A stretch of 64,000 nucleotides of DNA, taken from the NCBI GenBank assembly GCA_965202745.1, contig CBDBCB010000016.1, forward strand, positions 28,262 to 92,261. Reading direction: 5' to 3'. Shown here in pieces: positions 4,293-57,254 of this stretch (position 1 is the first letter of the stretch; each line of letters begins with the position of its first letter). The stretch is from Alphaproteobacteria bacterium. Its GTDB lineage: Bacteria; Pseudomonadota; Alphaproteobacteria; Bin95. The position numbers and the translations under genes are program-made. The notes beneath the pieces are model-generated. The model made no database searches. It saw only the letters and a program-made list of their open reading frames with translations, and was not told where the DNA came from.

Positions 4293-5642
4293 CGTGGAGC
4301 CTGCTGCCCTATCAGCGCGCCTGGATCAGGGAGACCGCGCCGCTGGCGGTGATCGAGAAATCCCGCCACATCGGCATCTCCTGGGCCGAGGCCTATCACG
4401 CGGTCATGCACGCCGCCGACGATCGCGGCGACGTCTATTATCAGTCCTATGACCGGGACATGACGCGCGGATTTATCGAGGATTGCGCCGGGTGGATCGA
4501 GGGGCTCGATGTCTCCGCCCGCCAGGTCGGCGAACCAATTCTGGACAATGACGGGCGTGACATCCAGGTGTTTCGCATCAATTTCGCCAGCGGACGCAGG
4601 ATAATCGCCATGACATCCAGCCCGCGCGGGTTCCGGAGCAAGGGGCGTCCCGGCGATCTCGCGATCGTCGATGAGGCGGCGTTCGTGGACAATATCGACG
4701 CGGTGCTGAAGGCGGCTCTCGCGTTTACCAATTGGGGCGGCCGGGTCCGGATCATCTCGACCCACAATGGCGAGGGCAATGCGTTCAACACCCTGCTGCG
4801 CGATATCCGCGACGGCCGGAAACCCGGTGTCGTGCACCGCGTGACGCTGCGCGAGGCCCTCGATCAGGGTCTCTATTCCCGCATCGCCACGGTCACCGGC
4901 CAGCCCGACACGCCCGGGGCCGCCGCGGCATGGGAGGCGGCGATCCGCGCCCAGCATGGCCATCACGCGGCCGAGGAACTCGACTGCATCCCCTCGGCCG
5001 GCGGCGGGGCCTGGATAACCTTCAATCTGATCCGCGGGGCCGGTCTGGATTGGCGTGGACGTCGCGCGCCGCCGCGATCTCTGGGTCGCCGCCGTGATCG
5101 AGGAAAGCACCGGCACCCTGTGGCTGCGCGAGATCACCACGCTGCGCGATGCGCCGTTTTCCGAACAGCGCGCCGAGATACGCAGGCTGGCCGCGCTCCA
5201 CCGCCCGCTGCGTATCGTGGTCGACCAGACCGGCATGGGCGAGGCGGTGGTGGAACAGCTTCAGGAGGACCACGGGAGCCTGACCGTCGAGGGCGTGCTG
5301 ATGACGGCACCCCGGCGTCTCGATGTGGCCAGCGGTCTGCGCGAGGCCTTCGAGGACCGGTGCATCCGCATCCCCCCCGACGAGGCGCTGCGGGCCGATC
5401 TGCACAGCGTGCGTGCCGAGCCCGGCGGCACCGGCGCGCCGCGGCTTGTCGCCGACCGCTTCTGGGCCATGGCGCTGGCGGTGCTGGGGTCCAATTCGAC
5501 AGCCGGACCGTTCAGGGCGAGAGTTGCGGGCACGCCGTCGCCTGTGCGTGCGGCCTGGGGCGGGCGTCCCGGCTATGAAATCGACCCGGCGGCGGGCATG
5601 GTGCGCTCCCCGCTTGATCCCATACGGTCCTGGAGGATGTAG
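4289..5642 (+). pseudogene. Terminase large subunit (Mu gp28-like), +1 frameshift at a G-run (5036-5039)
   Basis: The N-terminal ATPase part is in frame 2 (LLPYQRAWIRE...IEKSRHIGISWAEA...DLAIVDEAAFV). The nuclease part is in frame 0 (WIGVDVARRRDLWVAAVIEE...RIVVDQTGMGEAV). The join is at cgcggggcc. Confidence 0.7.
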
Positions 5643-28081: not shown

Positions 28082-29638
28082 CTACGCGCGGCGCTGCGCC
28101 TGTCCCAACAACCAAGCCGGCAACATGGCGAAGGCAAACACCGCCGCCAGGGCCAGGAAACAGTCCTGGAACGCAAAGCCCTCTGCCTGCGCCAGCACAA
28201 TGTTGCTGAGGTAAGAAAGCGCCATGCCCTCGCGCACGCTTTCGCTGATGCCGGTCGTCGCCAGCAATTCAGCCACCTTGGCCAAAAGAGAAGCGCTTGC
28301 ATCGTTTCCCGCGGTCTGGGTAGCGGTCAGAGCATCGCTATGAACCGACGTCTGCATCACCAGCCAGACGACCGTCAGGTTGATGCCGCTCGCCCCGCCA
28401 AGCTGGCGTATGAAGTTCATATTGCCGGAGCCTTTGGGAAGCTCCGCCGCCGACAGCGCGCTCAGCGCCGTCGAAGACAAAGACGGCAGAATGAAGCCCA
28501 GACCCATCCGGCTGATTACCGCGAACATGGCAAAATTCCAGAACGGGGTGTTCACGTCGCTGGTCACCATCAACGCCGTGCCGAGGGAGAAGGCCGCCAG
28601 CCCCGACAGCACCATCCAGTAACCCGGAATCTTGTCCGCCAGCCGCCCGGTGAACGGCAACATCATCGCCAGAACCAGGGCTGCGGGCACCATGACCGCG
28701 CCGGCGCGGGTAGCGGTATAGCCCTGCACCTCCTGCACAAAGACCGGGATCAGGTAGGTAGAACCGAAATTGCCCGCGCCGAACACAAACGCGACGAAGA
28801 CCGCAGCGGAAAAGACCGGGTTCCGGAACAATTGCACCGCCAGCAAGGGACCATCCATCCAGACCTGCCACCAGACAAAGAACGCGCTTGAGAGCACACC
28901 GCCCCCTACCAGGGTCATGACATGGTCGGAGCTCCAACCGTAGCGGGGGCCGTGTGCCAAACCGGTCATGATGCAGAACAAGGCGAAGCACAGCAGGCCA
29001 TAGCCAAGCCAGTCAAACCGCGGCAGGCGCACCGGGCGCGGCGGATTGGGCATAATCAGCAATCCGCCTATCATCGCCAGGCTGACGAATGGCAACGGCA
29101 GCAGGAATATGGCCCGCCAGTTAAATGCATCGATGAGGGCGCCGGCAACCGTCGGCCCCAGGCCCGGCGCCAGCACAACGCCTGTCCCGAACACTCCCAT
29201 GGCCAGGCCGCGCTTGTCCGGTGGGAACACCTGAAAGATCGTCACCATCACCAGGGGCTGGACAATCCCGGCGGCAAACCCCTGCATCACCCGGCCGACG
29301 ATAAGAATTTCCATACTGGGCGCGGTTGCCGACACCATGGAGCCCAGACCGAACACTACCAATGTCATAGTGAAGGCTAGCCGCTGCCCCAGGGCTGCAA
29401 TCATCCAGGCGTTCAACAACTGGCTGGCCGTCATGGTGGCCAGGAAGGCGGTTGCCATCCATTGGACCTGGTCCTGGCCGATACCAAAGCCGCCCATCAC
29501 ATGAGGCACCGCCACGTTGACCAATGTCGCGCTCATCATCATTGCAGCGGCACCGCTCAACCCGACGATTGCTACCAACCAGCGGTATTTCGGACCATAC
29601 TTCGCAAACAGGTCATCGACTGTTTCGGTGCTTAGCAT
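28082..29638 (-). CDS. MFS transporter, DHA2 (EmrB/QacA-like, 14 TM) efflux family
   Basis: 518 aa with about 14 hydrophobic helices and MFS signature regions. Confidence 0.85.
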   Translation of the reverse strand: MLSTETVDDLFAKYGPKYRWLVAIVGLSGAAAMMMSATLVNVAVPHVMGGFGIGQDQVQWMATAFLATMTASQLLNAWMIAALGQRLAFTMTLVVFGLGSMVSATAPSMEILIVGRVMQGFAAGIVQPLVMVTIFQVFPPDKRGLAMGVFGTGVVLAPGLGPTVAGALIDAFNWRAIFLLPLPFVSLAMIGGLLIMPNPPRPVRLPRFDWLGYGLLCFALFCIMTGLAHGPRYGWSSDHVMTLVGGGVLSSAFFVWWQVWMDGPLLAVQLFRNPVFSAAVFVAFVFGAGNFGSTYLIPVFVQEVQGYTATRAGAVMVPAALVLAMMLPFTGRLADKIPGYWMVLSGLAAFSLGTALMVTSDVNTPFWNFAMFAVISRMGLGFILPSLSSTALSALSAAELPKGSGNMNFIRQLGGASGINLTVVWLVMQTSVHSDALTATQTAGNDASASLLAKVAELLATTGISESVREGMALSYLSNIVLAQAEGFAFQDCFLALAAVFAFAMLPAWLLGQAQRRA

Positions 29639-46732: not shown

Positions 46733-47018
46733 TCATCTAATGATGGTTCCGTTCGGTGCCGTTATATCCCAATGGGTATCTGAGTTAGCACAAGGAAAGA
46801 AAAAGCAGCCCGGAACAATCGGTTGGTGAAACCGCACCGGATGGCCAGTAACGAAGGTAATCAGGGCTCATTGGTCCCGGGATTTTCCCGGTCCAATACA
46901 CGTGCCAGCCCGACTGACACTCGATCCCAGCTGTGAAAATCAGCAACTAACACTGCGTGCAATGGCACCTGCCCGGTGCTCTTCAGGCAACGGCATAGGC
47001 AATCAAGAGGTTTTAAAT

Positions 47019-47618
47019 ATGGCAAAGCTAACAAAGTTCAAACCAGGCGATCACGTCGTCTACCCGGCCCATGGCGTTGGGATGGTGACCTCCATAGAGA
47101 CGCGGGAAGTCGCCGGTATGGAACTGGAAATGCTTGTCATTGAGTTCGATAAGGAAAAGATGACCCTGCGCATCCCGGTCGGCAAAGTCGACAGTGCCGG
47201 CCTGCGCGGTCTGGCCTCCAAGAAAGATATGCAGGATGCGCTGAAGACCCTGAAGGGCAAGGTCCGGATCAAGCGCACCATGTGGAGCCGCCGCGCCCAG
47301 GAATACGAGGCCAAGATCAACTCCGGCAATCTGGTGCAGGTTGCCGAAGTGGTCCGTGACCTCTATCGCAACGCCGACCAGCCTGACCAATCCTACAGCG
47401 AGCGCCAGATCTATCAGGCCGCGCTGGAGCGCCTGGTGCGCGAACTGGCCGCCATCGACCGCGTCGATGAGGAGAAAGCTCAGGACAAGCTGGAAGCCAT
47501 CCTCAGCGCTGCCTCCCCCGTCGCCGCGCCGGTAGTTGATCCGGAAGACGATGACGATGAAAACGGGGACGACAACGATGATGACACGGAAGGCAAGTCG
47601 GAAGAAGCCGCCGCCTAG
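47019..47618 (+). CDS. carD: CarD/CdnL-family RNA-polymerase-binding transcription factor
   Basis: MAKLTKFKPGDHVVYPAHGVGMVTSIE... with an acidic C-terminal tail. There is an AAGAGG RBS. Confidence 0.85.
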   Translation: MAKLTKFKPGDHVVYPAHGVGMVTSIETREVAGMELEMLVIEFDKEKMTLRIPVGKVDSAGLRGLASKKDMQDALKTLKGKVRIKRTMWSRRAQEYEAKINSGNLVQVAEVVRDLYRNADQPDQSYSERQIYQAALERLVRELAAIDRVDEEKAQDKLEAILSAASPVAAPVVDPEDDDDENGDDNDDDTEGKSEEAAA

Positions 47619-50130: not shown

Positions 50131-50295
50131 TTGCGCATCCAAGCAATCATGCATACTCAAGTAAATATCAATTGCAGATTATACCCTTATATGCGCACCA
50201 TATCGCATGTGAGACTAGCCCCTTGGGCAACGCTCATTGAATTGCCGGATCCACGGCAGTCCAAGCCCGCGTTTCGATCCAATGGAAGGTCTAAA

Positions 50296-50851
50296 ATGCC
50301 AAAGCTATTTGCACGCACCGTTGCCGTCGCCGTTTTTCTGACGGCATTACTCGTCAGCCGGCACTCTCACGCGACAATTGTCTACAATATATTCGATGAT
50401 TTCGGCACGGCGACTATCTCCGGCACTATAACAACGGATGGTACCATCGGTGCCGTCGGCAACGGTAACATCACCGACTGGAGCCTTTCCCTGATCAGTG
50501 GGGCAGGAATCTTTTCGCTGACCAAATCTCCACTAAACTCCGAACTCTACTCGGGCAACGGCGTCCTCCAAGCGAGCGTAACGGAGCTGGCATTCGACCA
50601 TTCAGTCAATCATATCTTCCTGATCCGGAATTTCCCCATTCAGAATTTTTGGTGCCTGGAAGGTCCAAACAGTGGATGTTTTGGGACTCCTTCCTCCTCA
50701 AATGTCTCGGTCGGCGGCCGCTTCAATCAACACGTCAATATCGGCCGGACGGGATTGCATGTTTACGGCACGGTGCCCGTTCCCGCGGCCCTGCCGTTAA
50801 TGGCAGCTGGGCATTGGCGGCTTAGCCCTGCTCTCGCGTCGGCAGCGTTAA
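50296..50851 (+). pseudogene. Secreted VPLPA-CTERM sorting-signal protein, frameshifted inside the sorting signal (G-run 50809-50811)
   Basis: Signal peptide MPKLFARTVAVAVFLTALLVS. ...TVPVPAALPLMAAG is followed in the +1 frame by IGGLALLSRRQR*. Confidence 0.55.
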
Positions 50852-50940
50852 GCCCATCCTTAGCGATCCAATCACAACGCGTGTCAAACAAACAAGTCTC
50901 TCGAGGTGTTGCGTAAAATGAAAACGACCATCGCGGAGTA

Positions 50941-51504
50941 GTGCTGGCCATCGCAGCGGTACTGACGCTCGCAACTGCGGCGAAGGCTGCACCGATCATC
51001 GGCGGGTCCGGGCTCTCCGCTCCAGCCACAACCATTACCTTTTCCGAGGTAGCAGTTGCGAACGGCGCAGTTGTCACCAGCCAGTTCTCGGCCTTCGGCG
51101 TCACATTCGGCAGCCTTTCAGCAACCGAAGGCCTCTACTATAGCTCCGGTGCCGGACTACTGAATTATTTCCCAGACACCTACAATCCGTTCTCGATCCA
51201 GTTCAACGGTCCAGTCTCCGACGCTGCCTTTCTGATGATTACCAACGGCAGCACCGATGTTTTCACGGCATTGCTTAATGGTAGTGTGGTAAATCAATTC
51301 AGTTCTGCAACAGGCGGTTGGAAATATTTCGGATTCGCTGGAATTGTATTTGACGAAATTCAGGTAGACTTTACCGGACCTGCCAATGGTCCGCACATGC
51401 GCCTGGACAACCTTCAGTTTGAACCCGTGCCCATTCCCGCTGCTTTGCCGCTGATGGCAGCAGGAATTGGAGGCCTGGCTCTGCTGGCGCGCCGCCGCAA
51501 GTAA
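50941..51504 (+). CDS. Secreted VPLPA-CTERM sorting-signal protein
   Basis: The C-terminus EPVPIPAALPLMAAGIGGLALLARRRK is the canonical motif, TM helix and basic cluster. The start is uncertain: GTG 50941, or ATG 50918 with a 1-nt frameshift. Confidence 0.6.
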   Translation: MLAIAAVLTLATAAKAAPIIGGSGLSAPATTITFSEVAVANGAVVTSQFSAFGVTFGSLSATEGLYYSSGAGLLNYFPDTYNPFSIQFNGPVSDAAFLMITNGSTDVFTALLNGSVVNQFSSATGGWKYFGFAGIVFDEIQVDFTGPANGPHMRLDNLQFEPVPIPAALPLMAAGIGGLALLARRRK

Positions 51505-53775: not shown

Positions 53776-55562
53776 CCACCTCTGCTTCCCTGGGCGCGCC
53801 CCAAATCGAAACGCTCCAGACCGACATCCTGATCATCGGCGCAGGCGGCGCTGGCCTGATGGCGGCCCTGCACGCGGCCCAGGCCAACCCGGACCTGCAC
53901 ATCACGATTGCGGTCAAGGGCCTGCTCGGCAAATGCGGCTGCACGCGCATGGTGCAGGGCGGCTACAACGTCGCCATCAATCCGGGCGACTCGATCGAGC
54001 GCCACTTCATGGACTCCATCGTTGGCGGCAAATGGCTGCCGGACCAAGACCTCGCCTGGCGCTTGATCAACGGCGCGGTCGAGCGTATTCGCGAGCTGGA
54101 AAACGAGATCGGCTGCTTCTTCGACCGCAACCCCGACGGCACGCTGCACCAGAAAGCATTTGCGGGCCAAAGCTTCGACCGCACGGCGCACAAGGGCGAC
54201 CTGACCGGCATCGAGATCGTCTCCCGCCTGATCGAGCAGATCTGGGCCCGCAACGTCCACAAGCTGGAGGAGCACCGCGCGCTCGCCATCGTGCCGGACA
54301 AGGAGGGCAAATCCTGCGCCGGCATGCTGCTGACCGACATGCGCACCGGTGCCTTCAAGCTGGTGCGGGCCAAGGCCGTGCTGATGGCGGCGGGCGGCGG
54401 TCCGACCATGTACAAGTACTACACCCCCTCCGGCGACAAGGCCTGCGACGGCATGGCGATGGCGCTGGCGGCAGGCCTCTCGCTCCGCGACATGGAGATG
54501 GTGCAGTTCCACCCCACCGGCCTGCTGGCGGGCGAGGACACGCGCATGACCGGCACCGTGCTGGAGGAGGGCCTGCGTGGCGCGGGCGGGCACCTGCTGA
54601 ACGGCGACGGCCACCGGTTCATGCTGGACCGCAACCCGGCGGGCGAGCGCGCCACGCGCGACATCGTCTCCCGCGAGATCTACCGCGAGATGCGCGACGG
54701 CAAGACCACCCAGCACGGCGGCGTCTATATCGAGATGAAGCACCTGGGGCCGGAGAAGGTCGCCAAACTGTTCAAGGGCATGGTCGAGCGCTGCGCCGAT
54801 TGCGGCTTCGACCTGGCGGGCGGGCGGGTCGAGGTGGTGCCGACCGCGCACTACATGATGGGCGGCATCTCCTTCAACGTGGACACGACCACCGCCATGC
54901 CCGGCCTGTTCTGCGCGGGCGAGGACTCGGGCGGCGTCCACGGCGCGAACCGCCTGGGCGGCAACGGCGTCGCGAATTCCACCGTCTTCGGCGGCATCGC
55001 GGGCGACGAGATGGCGGCTTACGTCGCGCGCGAGCCCGGCTGGCGTGAGCCTGACGTGGAAGTGGCGCGGGCTGCCGCGGCGGCGTCACTCCGGCCGTTT
55101 GCCTTGGGCGGAGGAGACCTGAATGGCCTCCGCAAGCGCCTGCTGGACATGATGTGGGACGAGGCAGGCATCATCCGCACTAAGGAGAGCCTAGGCAAAG
55201 CCCTAATAGAACTGGACCGCTTCGAGGCCGAACTTACCGCCACCGGCATCCCCGACTCCTCCCTGGCGTTTAATTTAACCTGGCACGACTGGCTGAACCT
55301 GGAAAGCCAACTCACCATCTCCAAAACCATCTGCCACGCCGCCCTGGCCCGCGAAAACTCCCGAGGCGCCCACTACCGCGACGACTTCCCCGACGAGGGG
55401 GATTTGCAGGCGTCTTACTTCACCAAGGTGCGGTTCGCCCGGGAGGTTGAGTCCGCGGCCGAGGGCTTCGAAGTCTCCACCCAACCGATAAAATTCACCA
55501 TCGTGAAGCCGGGTGAGAGCTTGATTGAAGGGAATGTGGGAGCGCCCGTGGCGGCGGAGTGA
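53772..55562 (+). CDS. sdhA: Succinate dehydrogenase/fumarate reductase flavoprotein subunit (divergent; Cys replaces the covalent-FAD His)
   Basis: DILIIGAGGAGLMAA FAD fold, then GKCGCTRMVQGGYNV where canonical SdhA has RSHTVAAQGGINA. Includes the catalytic and C-terminal domains. Confidence 0.8.
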   Translation: MTTSASLGAPQIETLQTDILIIGAGGAGLMAALHAAQANPDLHITIAVKGLLGKCGCTRMVQGGYNVAINPGDSIERHFMDSIVGGKWLPDQDLAWRLINGAVERIRELENEIGCFFDRNPDGTLHQKAFAGQSFDRTAHKGDLTGIEIVSRLIEQIWARNVHKLEEHRALAIVPDKEGKSCAGMLLTDMRTGAFKLVRAKAVLMAAGGGPTMYKYYTPSGDKACDGMAMALAAGLSLRDMEMVQFHPTGLLAGEDTRMTGTVLEEGLRGAGGHLLNGDGHRFMLDRNPAGERATRDIVSREIYREMRDGKTTQHGGVYIEMKHLGPEKVAKLFKGMVERCADCGFDLAGGRVEVVPTAHYMMGGISFNVDTTTAMPGLFCAGEDSGGVHGANRLGGNGVANSTVFGGIAGDEMAAYVAREPGWREPDVEVARAAAAASLRPFALGGGDLNGLRKRLLDMMWDEAGIIRTKESLGKALIELDRFEAELTATGIPDSSLAFNLTWHDWLNLESQLTISKTICHAALARENSRGAHYRDDFPDEGDLQASYFTKVRFAREVESAAEGFEVSTQPIKFTIVKPGESLIEGNVGAPVAAE

Positions 55563-55628
55563 CTCTGTTAGTGGCTTGCAAACCAACTATTTAATATTTA
55601 TCGGTTTTAAGAGGCGGGAAAGATTAGC

Positions 55629-56093
55629 ATGGTAAAATCTTCCAGAATCTCAAGCGCCGACGGCTGCAATCCGCACATATCCGCCGAAATCGAAGCGCTA
55701 GTTGAGCGCGGGAAGGAACGAGGCTTCGTCACCTATGATGAGTTGAATGCCGTTCTTCCATCTGAGGAGGTTTCGTCCGAGGAGATCGATGACGTGATGG
55801 CCATCCTTGCGGGGTTCGGCATCAACATCATTGAGATTGACGAAGCGGCCGGTCCGTCGATTATGCGGGAGGAGGAAACCCGCACCTCCGCCGGCAACCC
55901 TGAGAGGCGTGCGCATAGAGTTCTTGGCGTCGAAACCGGGAAATCCACCGCCATTCGTACCGCCAAGGATGGTACCGTGATTATGGCACCGGCGATAAAG
56001 CCACGTAACTTCACTGCCCGCGAAATCCGCGATGCTGTCCGTGCCGTGAAGGAAGAAGAGCGGCAGAAGCAGGCACCCAGCGGCTCAGCCTAG
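55629..56093 (+). CDS. Stand-alone sigma-70 region 1.1-like protein (RpoD N-terminal domain homologue, no regions 1.2-4)
   Basis: ISAEIEALVERGKERGFVTYDELNAVLPSEEVSSEEIDDVMAILAGFGINIIEIDE closely matches alphaproteobacterial RpoD region 1.1. The remaining 80 aa are unrelated to sigma factors. Local GC is about 53%. Confidence 0.6.
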   Translation: MVKSSRISSADGCNPHISAEIEALVERGKERGFVTYDELNAVLPSEEVSSEEIDDVMAILAGFGINIIEIDEAAGPSIMREEETRTSAGNPERRAHRVLGVETGKSTAIRTAKDGTVIMAPAIKPRNFTAREIRDAVRAVKEEERQKQAPSGSA

Positions 56094-56113
56094 GCCAAGC
56101 GGTTCTGCCCCAC

Positions 56114-56752
56114 ATGCCAACATCCAGAGCCAATCCGAAGGCAGTCTTTATCAACTGTCCGTTCGACGGAACCTATACCCCCCTCTTTAAAGCTGTTGTT
56201 TTCGCAGTAGTCCGCTGCGGCTTCCTCCCACTCTGTGCACTTGAAGTGAACAACAGCGCAGACATCCGCATCGAGAAGATTGCCCGCATCATTCGCGAAT
56301 GCCCCATCGGCATCCACGACATTTCCCGGACGGAGCCCGATTCGGTAAACAGCCTGCCCCGGTTCAACATGCCTCTTGAATTAGGCCTGTATCTGGGAGC
56401 CCGTTATTTCGGCGACCGTACCCACCGCAACAAGGCTTACCTGATTCTCGATCGCGAACCGTACCGTTATCAGAAGTTCATTTCAGACATCGCCACCCAT
56501 GGCGACGAGGCGCGGGAAGTCATCAAGGCCGTGCGCGATTTCCTGAACAGCCACAACGGTCCGGAGCCGCTGCCGGACCGGGACCGGTTCCTTTGGCCGG
56601 AATACCAACGCTTCCAGAGCGCACTGCCGGAAATTTGCGCCAAGCTAAAGATCGCCGAGGCAGAACTGCAATTCCCGGACTTCCTCTACATCGTTACTGA
56701 CTACGTCTCCGAGGACACCCCGGAAAACCTCGCCGCCCGCCCTAATCCGTGA
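56114..56752 (+). CDS. Hypothetical protein with a STIR-superfamily (TIR / nucleoside 2-deoxyribosyltransferase-like) pattern
   Basis: KAVFINCPFDGTYTPLFKAVVFAVVRCGFLP and NMPLELGLYLGARYFGDRTHRNKAYLIL resemble the NDT/TIR-like motifs IYLAGPFF and D.GxxxELGYAxAxGKxVLLV. Assignment is by motif recall only. Confidence 0.4.
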   Translation: MPTSRANPKAVFINCPFDGTYTPLFKAVVFAVVRCGFLPLCALEVNNSADIRIEKIARIIRECPIGIHDISRTEPDSVNSLPRFNMPLELGLYLGARYFGDRTHRNKAYLILDREPYRYQKFISDIATHGDEAREVIKAVRDFLNSHNGPEPLPDRDRFLWPEYQRFQSALPEICAKLKIAEAELQFPDFLYIVTDYVSEDTPENLAARPNP

Positions 56753-56762
56753 GCGCGAGAGG

Positions 56763-57254
56763 CTACCCCTCCCCCACCACATGCGGCTCCCTATACACCA
56801 CCGGCTCGTTCGTGGAGCCGTCCAGCTTGAACGCATGCTCCTCAAACGTCGGGAAGCCTGCGGGCAGCACCAGCCTCTCCTGCGCGACGCCGGTGTAGAT
56901 GTAGCGGGTATTTTCCGGCGTGCGGGCGAACCAGTTGGGGTCGTCGAACGTGCCGCCGAACAGGCCGACAATGCCCGGAAAGCGCTCCAGGTCCAGAAAC
57001 AGCTTAGTCCCGCAATTGGCGCAGAAGTTGATGGTAACAGTCTTGCCGCTGCCCTCCGACGTGTGGCCGTAGGTCTTGGGCGTGCCCTTGGTCACCGCAA
57101 AAGCCTCAGCCGCAAAGATCGGCTCCAACAGATAGGCCGAGCCAGTGCCGCGCTGGCAGAACCGGCAATTGCAGATCGTCACCCGCATCGGCTCCGCCGT
57201 CACCTGGTAGCGCACCTCGCCGCAAATACAGCCGCCTTCATGCTTGGTCATCAC
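56763..57254 (-). CDS. GFA-family (glutathione-dependent formaldehyde-activating / CENP-V-like) zinc protein
   Basis: CICGEVRYQV...CNCRFCQ...CANCGT zinc ligands. Confidence 0.7.
   Translation of the reverse strand: MMTKHEGGCICGEVRYQVTAEPMRVTICNCRFCQRGTGSAYLLEPIFAAEAFAVTKGTPKTYGHTSEGSGKTVTINFCANCGTKLFLDLERFPGIVGLFGGTFDDPNWFARTPENTRYIYTGVAQERLVLPAGFPTFEEHAFKLDGSTNEPVVYREPHVVGEG

Follow-up and report, generated by a model that had tools for sequence, protein, structure and literature searches.

Is a sigma factor domain that stands alone beside a TIR-like enzyme gene one half of a new two-gene system? This question was raised by a low-GC islet of two genes in contig CBDBCB010000016.1 of an Alphaproteobacteria bacterium (NCBI GenBank assembly GCA_965202745.1), of which 64,000 nucleotides (positions 28,262 to 92,261) were analysed. 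We refer to this whole stretch as the window, and window positions are counted from its first letter. The two genes, gene 1 and gene 2, are co-directional, lie 20 nt apart and are flanked by sdhA and a GFA-family gene (Table 1). An earlier interpretation made from the letters alone (the sequence-only reading) had presented gene 1 as a free-standing sigma-70 region-1.1 (r1.1) protein and gene 2 as a member of the STIR superfamily, similar to TIR proteins and nucleoside 2-deoxyribosyltransferases (NDTs). Comparison with orthologous loci identifies gene 1 as the small partner protein of a recurrent two-gene cassette, carrying r1.1 as an in-frame insertion. Since this insertion into the small partner gene is unique, gene 1 is not a stand-alone r1.1 protein, and on this evidence the 'sigma fragment + TIR' system as first framed does not exist. 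The main value of the locus lies in the cassette rather than in the sigma fragment, as the cassette joins a large conserved STIR-like family almost always to a tiny basic protein. The case of gene 1 also warns against taking a single chimeric open reading frame (ORF) for a new system.

The closest relatives of gene 2 were found on related metagenomic contigs, with P0002 on L004 (84% identity) and P0003 on L005/L006 (77% identity). In L004, L005 and L006 the cassette comes directly after the sdhA stop codon, and the GFA gene is next in L005/L006. The small gene of L004 and L005/L006 encodes 81 amino acids (MTKSSKTVVGKSRKGAYEIHGGN...) without r1.1. In a three-way DNA alignment of the window, L004 and L005, the leader, the ATG and the first ~6 codons were shared, and homology resumed after the insert. 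Only the window carries ~241 nt at this point, in place of ~42 nt. The net gain of 219 nt is in frame and amounts to 73 codons, such that gene 1 has 154 amino acids vs 81 in its orthologues. Small ORFs upstream of gene 2 homologues in L001 (74 aa), L002 and L003 (82 aa) aligned to residues 88-154 of gene 1 with the pattern ...DGxxIVxPxxKPKNFTxxQIRxAVRDVKERQR, and P0306, a 78-aa representative of the partner, is 62% identical to this partner body. In fact, a small partner was located directly upstream of the gene 2 homologue in every close relative examined. The sequence-only reading had gene 1 diverge into unrelated sequence after r1.1; its last 67 residues are instead the conserved partner of gene 2. 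The orthologous loci of L004 and L005 show the state before the insertion, and hence this domain-capture event is unusually well documented. The locus illustrates the in-frame capture of a housekeeping domain, here sigma r1.1, by a two-gene module.

The captured domain itself is genuine, as had been proposed. Pfam matched Sigma70_r1_1 (PF03979) to residues 18-86 of gene 1 (nt 55680-55886; E 2.4e-20; 72.7 bits vs a cutoff of 22.5) over profile positions 4-71 of 81, and found none of the other sigma regions (1.2, 2, 3 and 4) in gene 1. The protein also fell below RpoD membership (NCBIfam PRK05658, score 47.6 vs a cutoff of 555). The insert consists of the folded r1.1 domain only, and the ~25-residue N-terminus of RpoD is absent. 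In the AlphaFold2 model of gene 1, residues 15-70 are folded and predicted to be helical, with a predicted local distance difference test score (pLDDT) of 73-87, while residues 74-109 are disordered and are followed by two short strands (110-118) and a helix (130-147). Residues 11-76 have a net charge of -13, like RpoD r1.1, and the most conserved block of r1.1 (RGFVTYDELNxVLPSEEVSSE) is kept at 20 of 21 residues. In its predicted helical fold, conserved block and charge, gene 1 is thus like RpoD r1.1. Unlike in RpoD, the domain is flanked by the first six codons of an unrelated small basic protein on one side and by the body of that protein on the other. The description of a close match to alphaproteobacterial RpoD was overstated, since over ~60 residues the insert reaches at best 58-65% identity to any RpoD.

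We found no second instance of this architecture. In an exhaustive HMMER search of 1.84 billion representatives (~15 billion proteins), gene 1 itself was the only match at E<=1e-30, and the remaining matches covered the r1.1 part alone or, in P0306, the partner part alone. A word-index search of 5.8 billion proteins returned no other full-length homologue of gene 1. The capture of r1.1 therefore looks like a one-off, lineage-specific event. The pairing of r1.1 with a STIR protein is not a recurrent one, with this sole instance among the 1.84 billion representatives; the pair that does recur is the small basic protein and the enzyme.

Could gene 1 simply be what is left of the 5' end of an rpoD gene, duplicated or disrupted, beside an unrelated gene, which the sequence-only reading had offered as its alternative? 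The r1.1 domain is indeed the sole sigma-70 region present, but orthology to the partner gene of L004/L005 extends over the leader, the start codon and the first ~6 codons, and again over the last 67 codons, and on this basis we reject the idea of a decayed duplicate. Moreover, the r1.1 segment is internal and misses the N-terminus of RpoD, and no region-2-like or other rpoD-like sequence was present elsewhere in the 64-kb window. The GC content at third codon positions (GC3) of the insert, 0.667, is like that of the islet and unlike that of the host genes (0.85-0.89). We consider the chance of such a remnant close to nil. Because identity to RpoD is at most 65%, GC3 is islet-like and rpoD-like sequence is missing from the window, the insert also does not appear to be a recent copy of the host rpoD. 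The contig is presumably metagenome-assembled, and an assembly chimera would fit a singleton architecture whose only recorded source is one 214-kb contig (NCBI, ENA). Yet for a chimera, two in-frame junctions would have to fall within 250 nt of a short gene. In composition the segment resembles the islet, and with an identity of <=65% to any rpoD it is no stray read from a co-assembled rpoD. An assembly artefact is therefore extremely improbable.

A stand-alone r1.1 family was considered and rejected, because its candidate members, short proteins with r1.1 alone that lie on long contigs (P0134, P0136, P0140 etc.), are frameshifted RpoD N-termini. In P0134, P0136, P0140, P0167, P0174, P0181 and P0207 the acidic linker is followed by out-of-frame Arg/Pro/Ser-rich tails, which points to frameshifts in assembly or gene calling of these metagenome proteins. 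The HMMER matches P0243, P0244, P0249 and P0241 indicate that genuine small proteins of two tandem r1.1-like repeats (130-180 aa) exist. The 1.8-kb contig of P0249 encodes, next to it, a second r1.1 protein of 130 aa and PemK/MazE, and P0241 (1413 aa) contains ten r1.1-like stretches. These proteins suggest that r1.1 has been reused outside sigma factors, in architectures unlike gene 1.

The enzyme of the cassette was detected in at least 585 GTDB species (one genome scanned per species). Its range covers Acidobacteriota, Verrucomicrobiota, Planctomycetota, Gemmatimonadota, Poribacteria, Nitrospirota and Chloroflexota, as well as Alpha-, Beta- and Gammaproteobacteria, Cyanobacteria and one Asgard metagenome-assembled genome. 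The partner was adjacent and on the same strand in 64 of the 84 non-redundant loci, as recognized by an iterated partner hidden Markov model or by the core motif P-x3-G-[ST]-h-x4-h-[RK]-x-A-V-x2-V (background 0.5% of ORFs). In 13 loci the start and stop of partner and enzyme genes overlap by 4 nt. Gene order is reversed in five loci of Poribacteria, where the partner follows the enzyme and the linkage is kept. In these loci (L030, L050, L053, L057 and L064; ~4615-4955) the motif PKRGKLTxxQxxRAVEKV lies directly downstream, in some cases fused to DUF2188. Clustering of 471 flanking ORFs revealed no third conserved neighbour. Two parts of the earlier proposal held, namely the tight linkage of the two genes and an apparently unannotated module, which also occurs on mobile elements (plasmids and integrative and conjugative elements, ICEs).

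The partner usually has 50-80 amino acids, with a variable basic tail (net charge +11 in the orthologues) and a conserved core of a strand, a turn and an amphipathic helix. Among the adjacent small ORFs, 6 of 75 carry DUF2188 and 1 of 75 a YjzC-like domain, which identifies the partner as a modular protein whose variable N-terminal region accepts added domains. DUF2188 is tied to defence operons in a passage of 10.1101/2022.04.27.489752 that cites Burroughs & Aravind (2020). Pfam gave nothing meaningful on the partner sequences, and PHROGs had no match to the partner. A partner-profile search of 5.8e9 proteins, with a short profile of low power, yielded 19 significant matches, all domain-free and 51-81 aa long. 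The cassette, a small basic partner plus a STIR-like enzyme of ~205 aa, is undescribed as far as we found and lacks a model in Pfam, NCBIfam and PADLOC.

For gene 2, profile searches did not recover the STIR/NDT families whose motif pattern had been noted in it. The protein had no match in Pfam (0 families at E<=1), NCBIfam, PADLOC or PHROGs, and in Pfam none of TIR, TIR_2 and CAP12-PCTIR_TIR matched above the curated cutoff. Weak matches to PF10137 (CAP12/Pycsar TIR) occurred in 11 of 34 relatives (best E 0.0035), and the family profile gave only chance-level matches to PDB sequences. The family is large, with at least 7,938 database proteins of ~200 aa, none of which has a Pfam domain. It is also highly conserved. 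Across 34 diverse members 33 columns are invariant, identity across phyla is ~49%, and the characteristic motifs are VFxNCPFD, HDxSRTE, PRFNMPxELG and SDIAGQD.

The fold was more informative. An alignment-based model of gene 2 (pLDDT 83; predicted template modelling score 0.82) has a flavodoxin-like core and a C-terminal helical domain of ~75 aa. Foldseek searches with this model retrieved SPARTA TIR-APAZ, plant TIRs, NDTs, DNPH1 and BcmB, with MilB as another structural neighbour, and in the viral library a CAP12/Pycsar TIR protein and phage NDTs. CheY and flavodoxin folds scored just below the TIR/NDT matches. As TIR, NDT and DNPH1 are the nearest neighbours of the model, we accept the earlier placement of gene 2 as STIR/NDT-like at the level of the predicted fold only. 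In the model, strand 1 with a 'CPF' loop is followed by a strand at residues 65-69 ending in Asp, a loop and a helix at 86-105 starting with 'LELG'. We take this order to mirror the catalytic layout of NDT and DNPH1, and VFINCPFD presumably resembles the 'YxAGPxF' loop of NDT by position. The invariant residues Asp69 and Glu89 are placed where those of NDT/DNPH1 would be, judging from the order of secondary-structure elements. Glu89, at the position of the Glu in 'ELG' of NDT/DNPH1, is a candidate catalytic residue.

Gene 2 shares the flavodoxin-like three-layer fold with the STIR proteins (CAP12/Pycsar TIR, SPARTA TIR-APAZ, Thoeris ThsB, NDT, DNPH1/RCL, MilB and BcmB), but its family differs from them by its own invariant motifs (HDISRTE, PRFNMPxELG and SDIAGQD) and by the extra C-terminal helical domain of ~75 aa. 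Unlike STIR effectors such as those of CBASS/Pycsar and SPARTA, it has no fused sensor (STING, SAVED, APAZ or cNMP); its constant partner is the basic protein of 50-80 aa. Unlike in Thoeris, no conserved effector gene with a signal-binding domain (SLOG, Macro etc.) was found near the family.

Both genes of the islet have changed since their separation from the orthologues. Gene 2 lacks 15 nt and with them the near-invariant residues G, Q and D, each of which is 96-99% conserved in 204 family members. The substitutions R40L and C109Y also fall on near-invariant sites; the closest relatives deviate at 0-2 such positions. Gene 2 has acquired 17 substitutions specific to the window, compared with 6 and 22 in its two orthologues, and for deviations from conserved columns the window copy ranks 48th of 204 and is not an outlier. 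The ratio of nonsynonymous to synonymous substitution rates (dN/dS) of gene 2 vs the L004 and L005 orthologues was 0.07-0.08, indicative of strong purifying selection. The partner body evolves faster than gene 2, with a dN of 0.36 in the window vs 0.083 between L004 and L005.

The sdhA-GFA site occurs in three states. Partner and enzyme are both present in L004 and L005/L006, the window has the r1.1-bearing partner and an enzyme without GQD, and L103/L104 have the partner only. The sdhA gene ends right before the cassette in L004, L005/L006 and L103/L104, and the GFA gene is a neighbour in L005/L006 and L103/L104. In L103 (1884-2120) and L104 (1882-2118) a partner gene of 78 aa is kept and the gene for the STIR-like enzyme is absent, while the other strand encodes an unrelated, secreted-looking ORF of 211 aa between sdhA and the partner gene. 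This arrangement points to loss of the enzyme, leaving a partner that resembles an orphan antitoxin. The cassette has occupied the site since the common ancestor of the window organism and several relatives. Only in the window lineage did the variable N-terminal tail of the partner gain, in frame, a segment of ~240 nt that encodes precisely the folded r1.1 of a primary sigma factor. Separately, the enzyme gene of this lineage lost five codons including the near-invariant GQD.

The genomic contexts of the cassette are diverse. It was found in an ICE- or plasmid leading-region-like stretch with Toprim, YAcAr, SSB and ParA, beside the toxin-antitoxin (TA) pairs PIN-MazE and RES-Xre, with BrxR, DCD and Nmad2, and on a conjugative Sphingomonas plasmid near a restriction endonuclease, a PLD protein and AbiEii. 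On the Sphingomonas psychrotolerans plasmid NZ_CP024924.1 (L087, 7613-8488) a 'restriction endonuclease' gene begins 4 nt after the enzyme gene. It is followed by genes for a PLD-like protein, an integrase and AbiEii, an order that may represent a three-gene variant or simply a defence island.

What might the cassette do? In its organization it is like type II TA systems (RES-Xre, MbcT-MbcA and DarT-DarG), as a co-directional pair, often overlapping, with the small gene first. The conserved adjacency of a small and a larger gene (64 of 84 loci, 13 of them with the 4-nt overlap) is of the TA style. As in TA systems, its distribution is patchy, it resides on plasmids, ICEs and TA islands, and the small gene may persist as an orphan after loss of the enzyme. 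The likeness is in organization only. The cassette has no sequence homology to known TA families, its enzyme is far more conserved than typical toxins and the order is reversed in Poribacteria. With a probability of about 0.5, we read the cassette as a TA-like or abortive-infection-like nucleotide/NAD (nicotinamide adenine dinucleotide) N-glycosidase module, in which r1.1 is probably a tolerated passenger. The enzyme would act as an N-glycosidase, with a nucleotide or an NAD-type molecule as its substrate, by means of Asp69 and Glu89. The partner would bind and restrain or regulate it through the strand-turn-helix core, and its basic tail may bind nucleic acid. The module would move on plasmids, ICEs and genomic islets. 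The r1.1 insert, which may neutralize the basic tail by its net charge of -13, most likely sits as a passenger in the region of the partner that takes up additions elsewhere, such as DUF2188 and the YjzC-like domain.

The TA-like or abortive-infection-like reading follows, circumstantially, from the small first gene, the overlaps, the patchy distribution, the mobile and TA-island contexts and the orphan partner. Several results weigh against it. PADLOC-DB v2 had no match to gene 1 or gene 2 at E<=1, viral contigs rarely carry the cassette (14 loci among 2.9 million), and a tblastn search of 50,697 phage genomes did not find it. With an identity across phyla of ~49% and 33 invariant columns, the enzyme is more conserved than is usual for a conflict gene, and a metabolic or housekeeping-type role would also fit. 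With regard to a passenger role of the insert, r1.1 has kept 20 of 21 block residues, its acidity and its open frame despite an identity to RpoD of <=65%, which speaks against drift that is purely neutral and makes a function conceivable. The cassette is a clean and simply testable candidate for a new TA or defence-type module that cleaves nucleotides or NAD. A functional insert would be a rare case among bacteria of an integrated bait of host origin; a non-functional one would neatly exemplify the tolerated insertion of a domain.

It is possible, although we doubt it, that the cassette is decaying in this lineage, with an enzyme attenuated by the GQD deletion, R40L and C109Y, a partner thereby freed to tolerate a random insertion, and both genes on their way to becoming pseudogenes. 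The changes strike near-invariant positions of the enzyme at which the closest relatives show few deviations, the partner body is fast-evolving and a sister locus is already without the enzyme gene. Yet both ORFs are intact, the pairwise dN/dS of gene 2 is 0.07-0.08, its number of window-specific substitutions falls between those of its orthologues, and by its rank among the 204 members the window copy is no outlier. Somewhat less credible is that the cassette is no conflict module at all, but a horizontally spread N-glycosidase of nucleotide metabolism or of salvage and sanitation, DNPH1- or MilB-like, with a small regulatory or chaperone subunit. Its very high conservation across phyla, the strong purifying selection, the metabolic N-glycosidases among its structural neighbours (DNPH1/RCL, MilB and BcmB) and the many loci in ordinary chromosomal contexts without a conserved defence neighbour would all agree with such a role. 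In contrast, the patchy distribution, a GC3 persistently below that of the host, the locations on plasmids, ICEs and TA islands, and the combination of overlapping genes with an orphan-partner state are more typical of addiction or defence cassettes.

The insert might also have been selected for a function, by tethering partner and enzyme to the main channel of RNA polymerase or by baiting phage proteins directed at sigma-70 r1.1 or the DNA channel and thus releasing the effector, in analogy to the plant decoys described below. A role in modulating RNA polymerase or as a decoy, which the sequence-only reading had raised, is speculative. In its favour, the insert spans exactly the folded r1.1 in frame with 72.7 bits, it is predicted to fold, its net charge is like that of RpoD r1.1, and a nearly identical block within an otherwise divergent domain is the pattern expected if the fold was maintained after divergence; moreover, the partner takes other accessory domains elsewhere in the family. 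We nevertheless consider it improbable. There is one occurrence among representatives of ~15 billion proteins with no independent recurrence, the GQD deletion, R40L and C109Y in the enzyme of the same lineage could mean that the module is being disabled rather than elaborated, and the conservation could reflect recent capture from an unsampled, divergent rpoD. More speculative still is a specific form of this idea, in which r1.1, as a copy of the DNA-mimic domain of sigma-70, would be an integrated decoy in an inhibitory partner. A phage protein directed at sigma-70 r1.1 or at the DNA channel of RNA polymerase would then bind the partner in its place and so set off the degradation of nucleotides or NAD. 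Nothing relevant to decoys of this kind came from a literature search. The decoy would be like the integrated decoys of plant TIR-type nucleotide-binding leucine-rich repeat (NLR) receptors, such as the WRKY domain of RRS1, in concept only, in that a domain of a host protein is copied into a TIR-like immune-type module; the r1.1 fusion differs in being single and joined to a small partner instead of a receptor. If true, it would be a bacterial counterpart of the plant NLR decoys, and the variable N-terminal tail of the partner, be it a basic tail, DUF2188, a YjzC-like domain or r1.1, would act as a swappable sensor.

Table 1. Positions of the cassette, its parts and its flanking genes in the window.
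Feature	Position	Strand	Basis and remarks
sdhA/frdA-type flavoprotein gene	53778-55562	+	Left flank, outside cassette; Pfam FAD_binding_2 and Succ_DH_flav_C
Cassette leader (intergenic, putative promoter/ribosome-binding site region)	55563-55628	+	Alignable with orthologous loci
Gene 1, chimeric small partner, 154 aa	55629-56093	+	ORF, Pfam, partner homology
Partner-type start, ~6 codons MVKSSR (orthologues MTKSSK / MAKPSK)	55629-55648	+	DNA and protein alignments
Lineage-specific in-frame insertion/replacement with r1.1	55649-55889	+	Segment missing from L004, L005/L006
Partner body, aa 88-154	55890-56093	+	Homology to partners of L001-L005; identity to P0306
Partner core motif, strand-turn-helix TVIMAPAIKPRNFTAREIRDAVRAVKEEER	~55971-56069	+	Alignments, AlphaFold2 model
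Gene 2, 212 aa, predicted TIR/NDT-like (STIR) fold and C-terminal helical domain	56114-56752	+	
Invariant strand-1 motif VFINCPFD	56144-56167	+	Invariant columns; strand 10-14 in model
Invariant PRFNMPLELG, after strand 3 (HDISRTE)	56357-56386	+	Invariant columns; candidate catalytic Glu89
Site of 15-nt in-frame deletion, SDIA/GQDxx/HG	56493-56496	+	Alignments with family and orthologues
GFA-family gene	56763-57254	-	Right flank, outside cassette; Pfam GFA, E 2.2e-28

The location between sdhA and a GFA gene, as first described, was confirmed on both flanks by Pfam. In the DNA alignment with L004 and L005, the leader between the sdhA stop codon and the ATG of the small gene contained the conserved blocks GTTA..GG.TTGCAA.C.AA, ATAT and GAG, and a scan of positions 55563-55628 for consensus sigma-70 elements revealed no strong promoter; a scan for terminators gave no useful signal either. 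The compositional difference of the islet from its flanks is real, but the GC content of 55563-56760 was 56.3% rather than the ~53% first given, compared with a window mean of 62.4%, 66.9% in sdhA and 63.0% in the GFA gene. In GC, the islet ranks among the lowest 6.6% of all 1.2-kb windows (z -1.4), which makes it a modest outlier. The contrast is sharper in GC3, which is 0.65-0.70 in the islet vs 0.85-0.89 in host genes. In all three orthologous loci (window, L004 and L005) the GC3 of the cassette is 0.52-0.72 vs 0.79-0.94 in the flanks, at a synonymous divergence of ~1. The cassette has not ameliorated to the host composition. A search around the islet for an integrase, tRNA signatures and flanking repeats gave only short, chance-level repeats.

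Two further observations were made upstream in the window. A gene for a CarD-family regulator that binds RNA polymerase is located at 46902-47618, ~8 kb upstream, and is probably unrelated to the cassette. Upstream of sdhB, a second low-GC patch (50131-51504, 50-58% GC) contains two ORFs without a Pfam match. The ORF at 50941-51504 carries a VPLPA-CTERM (PEP-CTERM-like) sorting signal at its end (TIGR03370, E 1e-7). The ORF at 50131-50916 has the same VPVPAALPLMAAG motif as this ORF, but continues beyond it and may be frameshifted.

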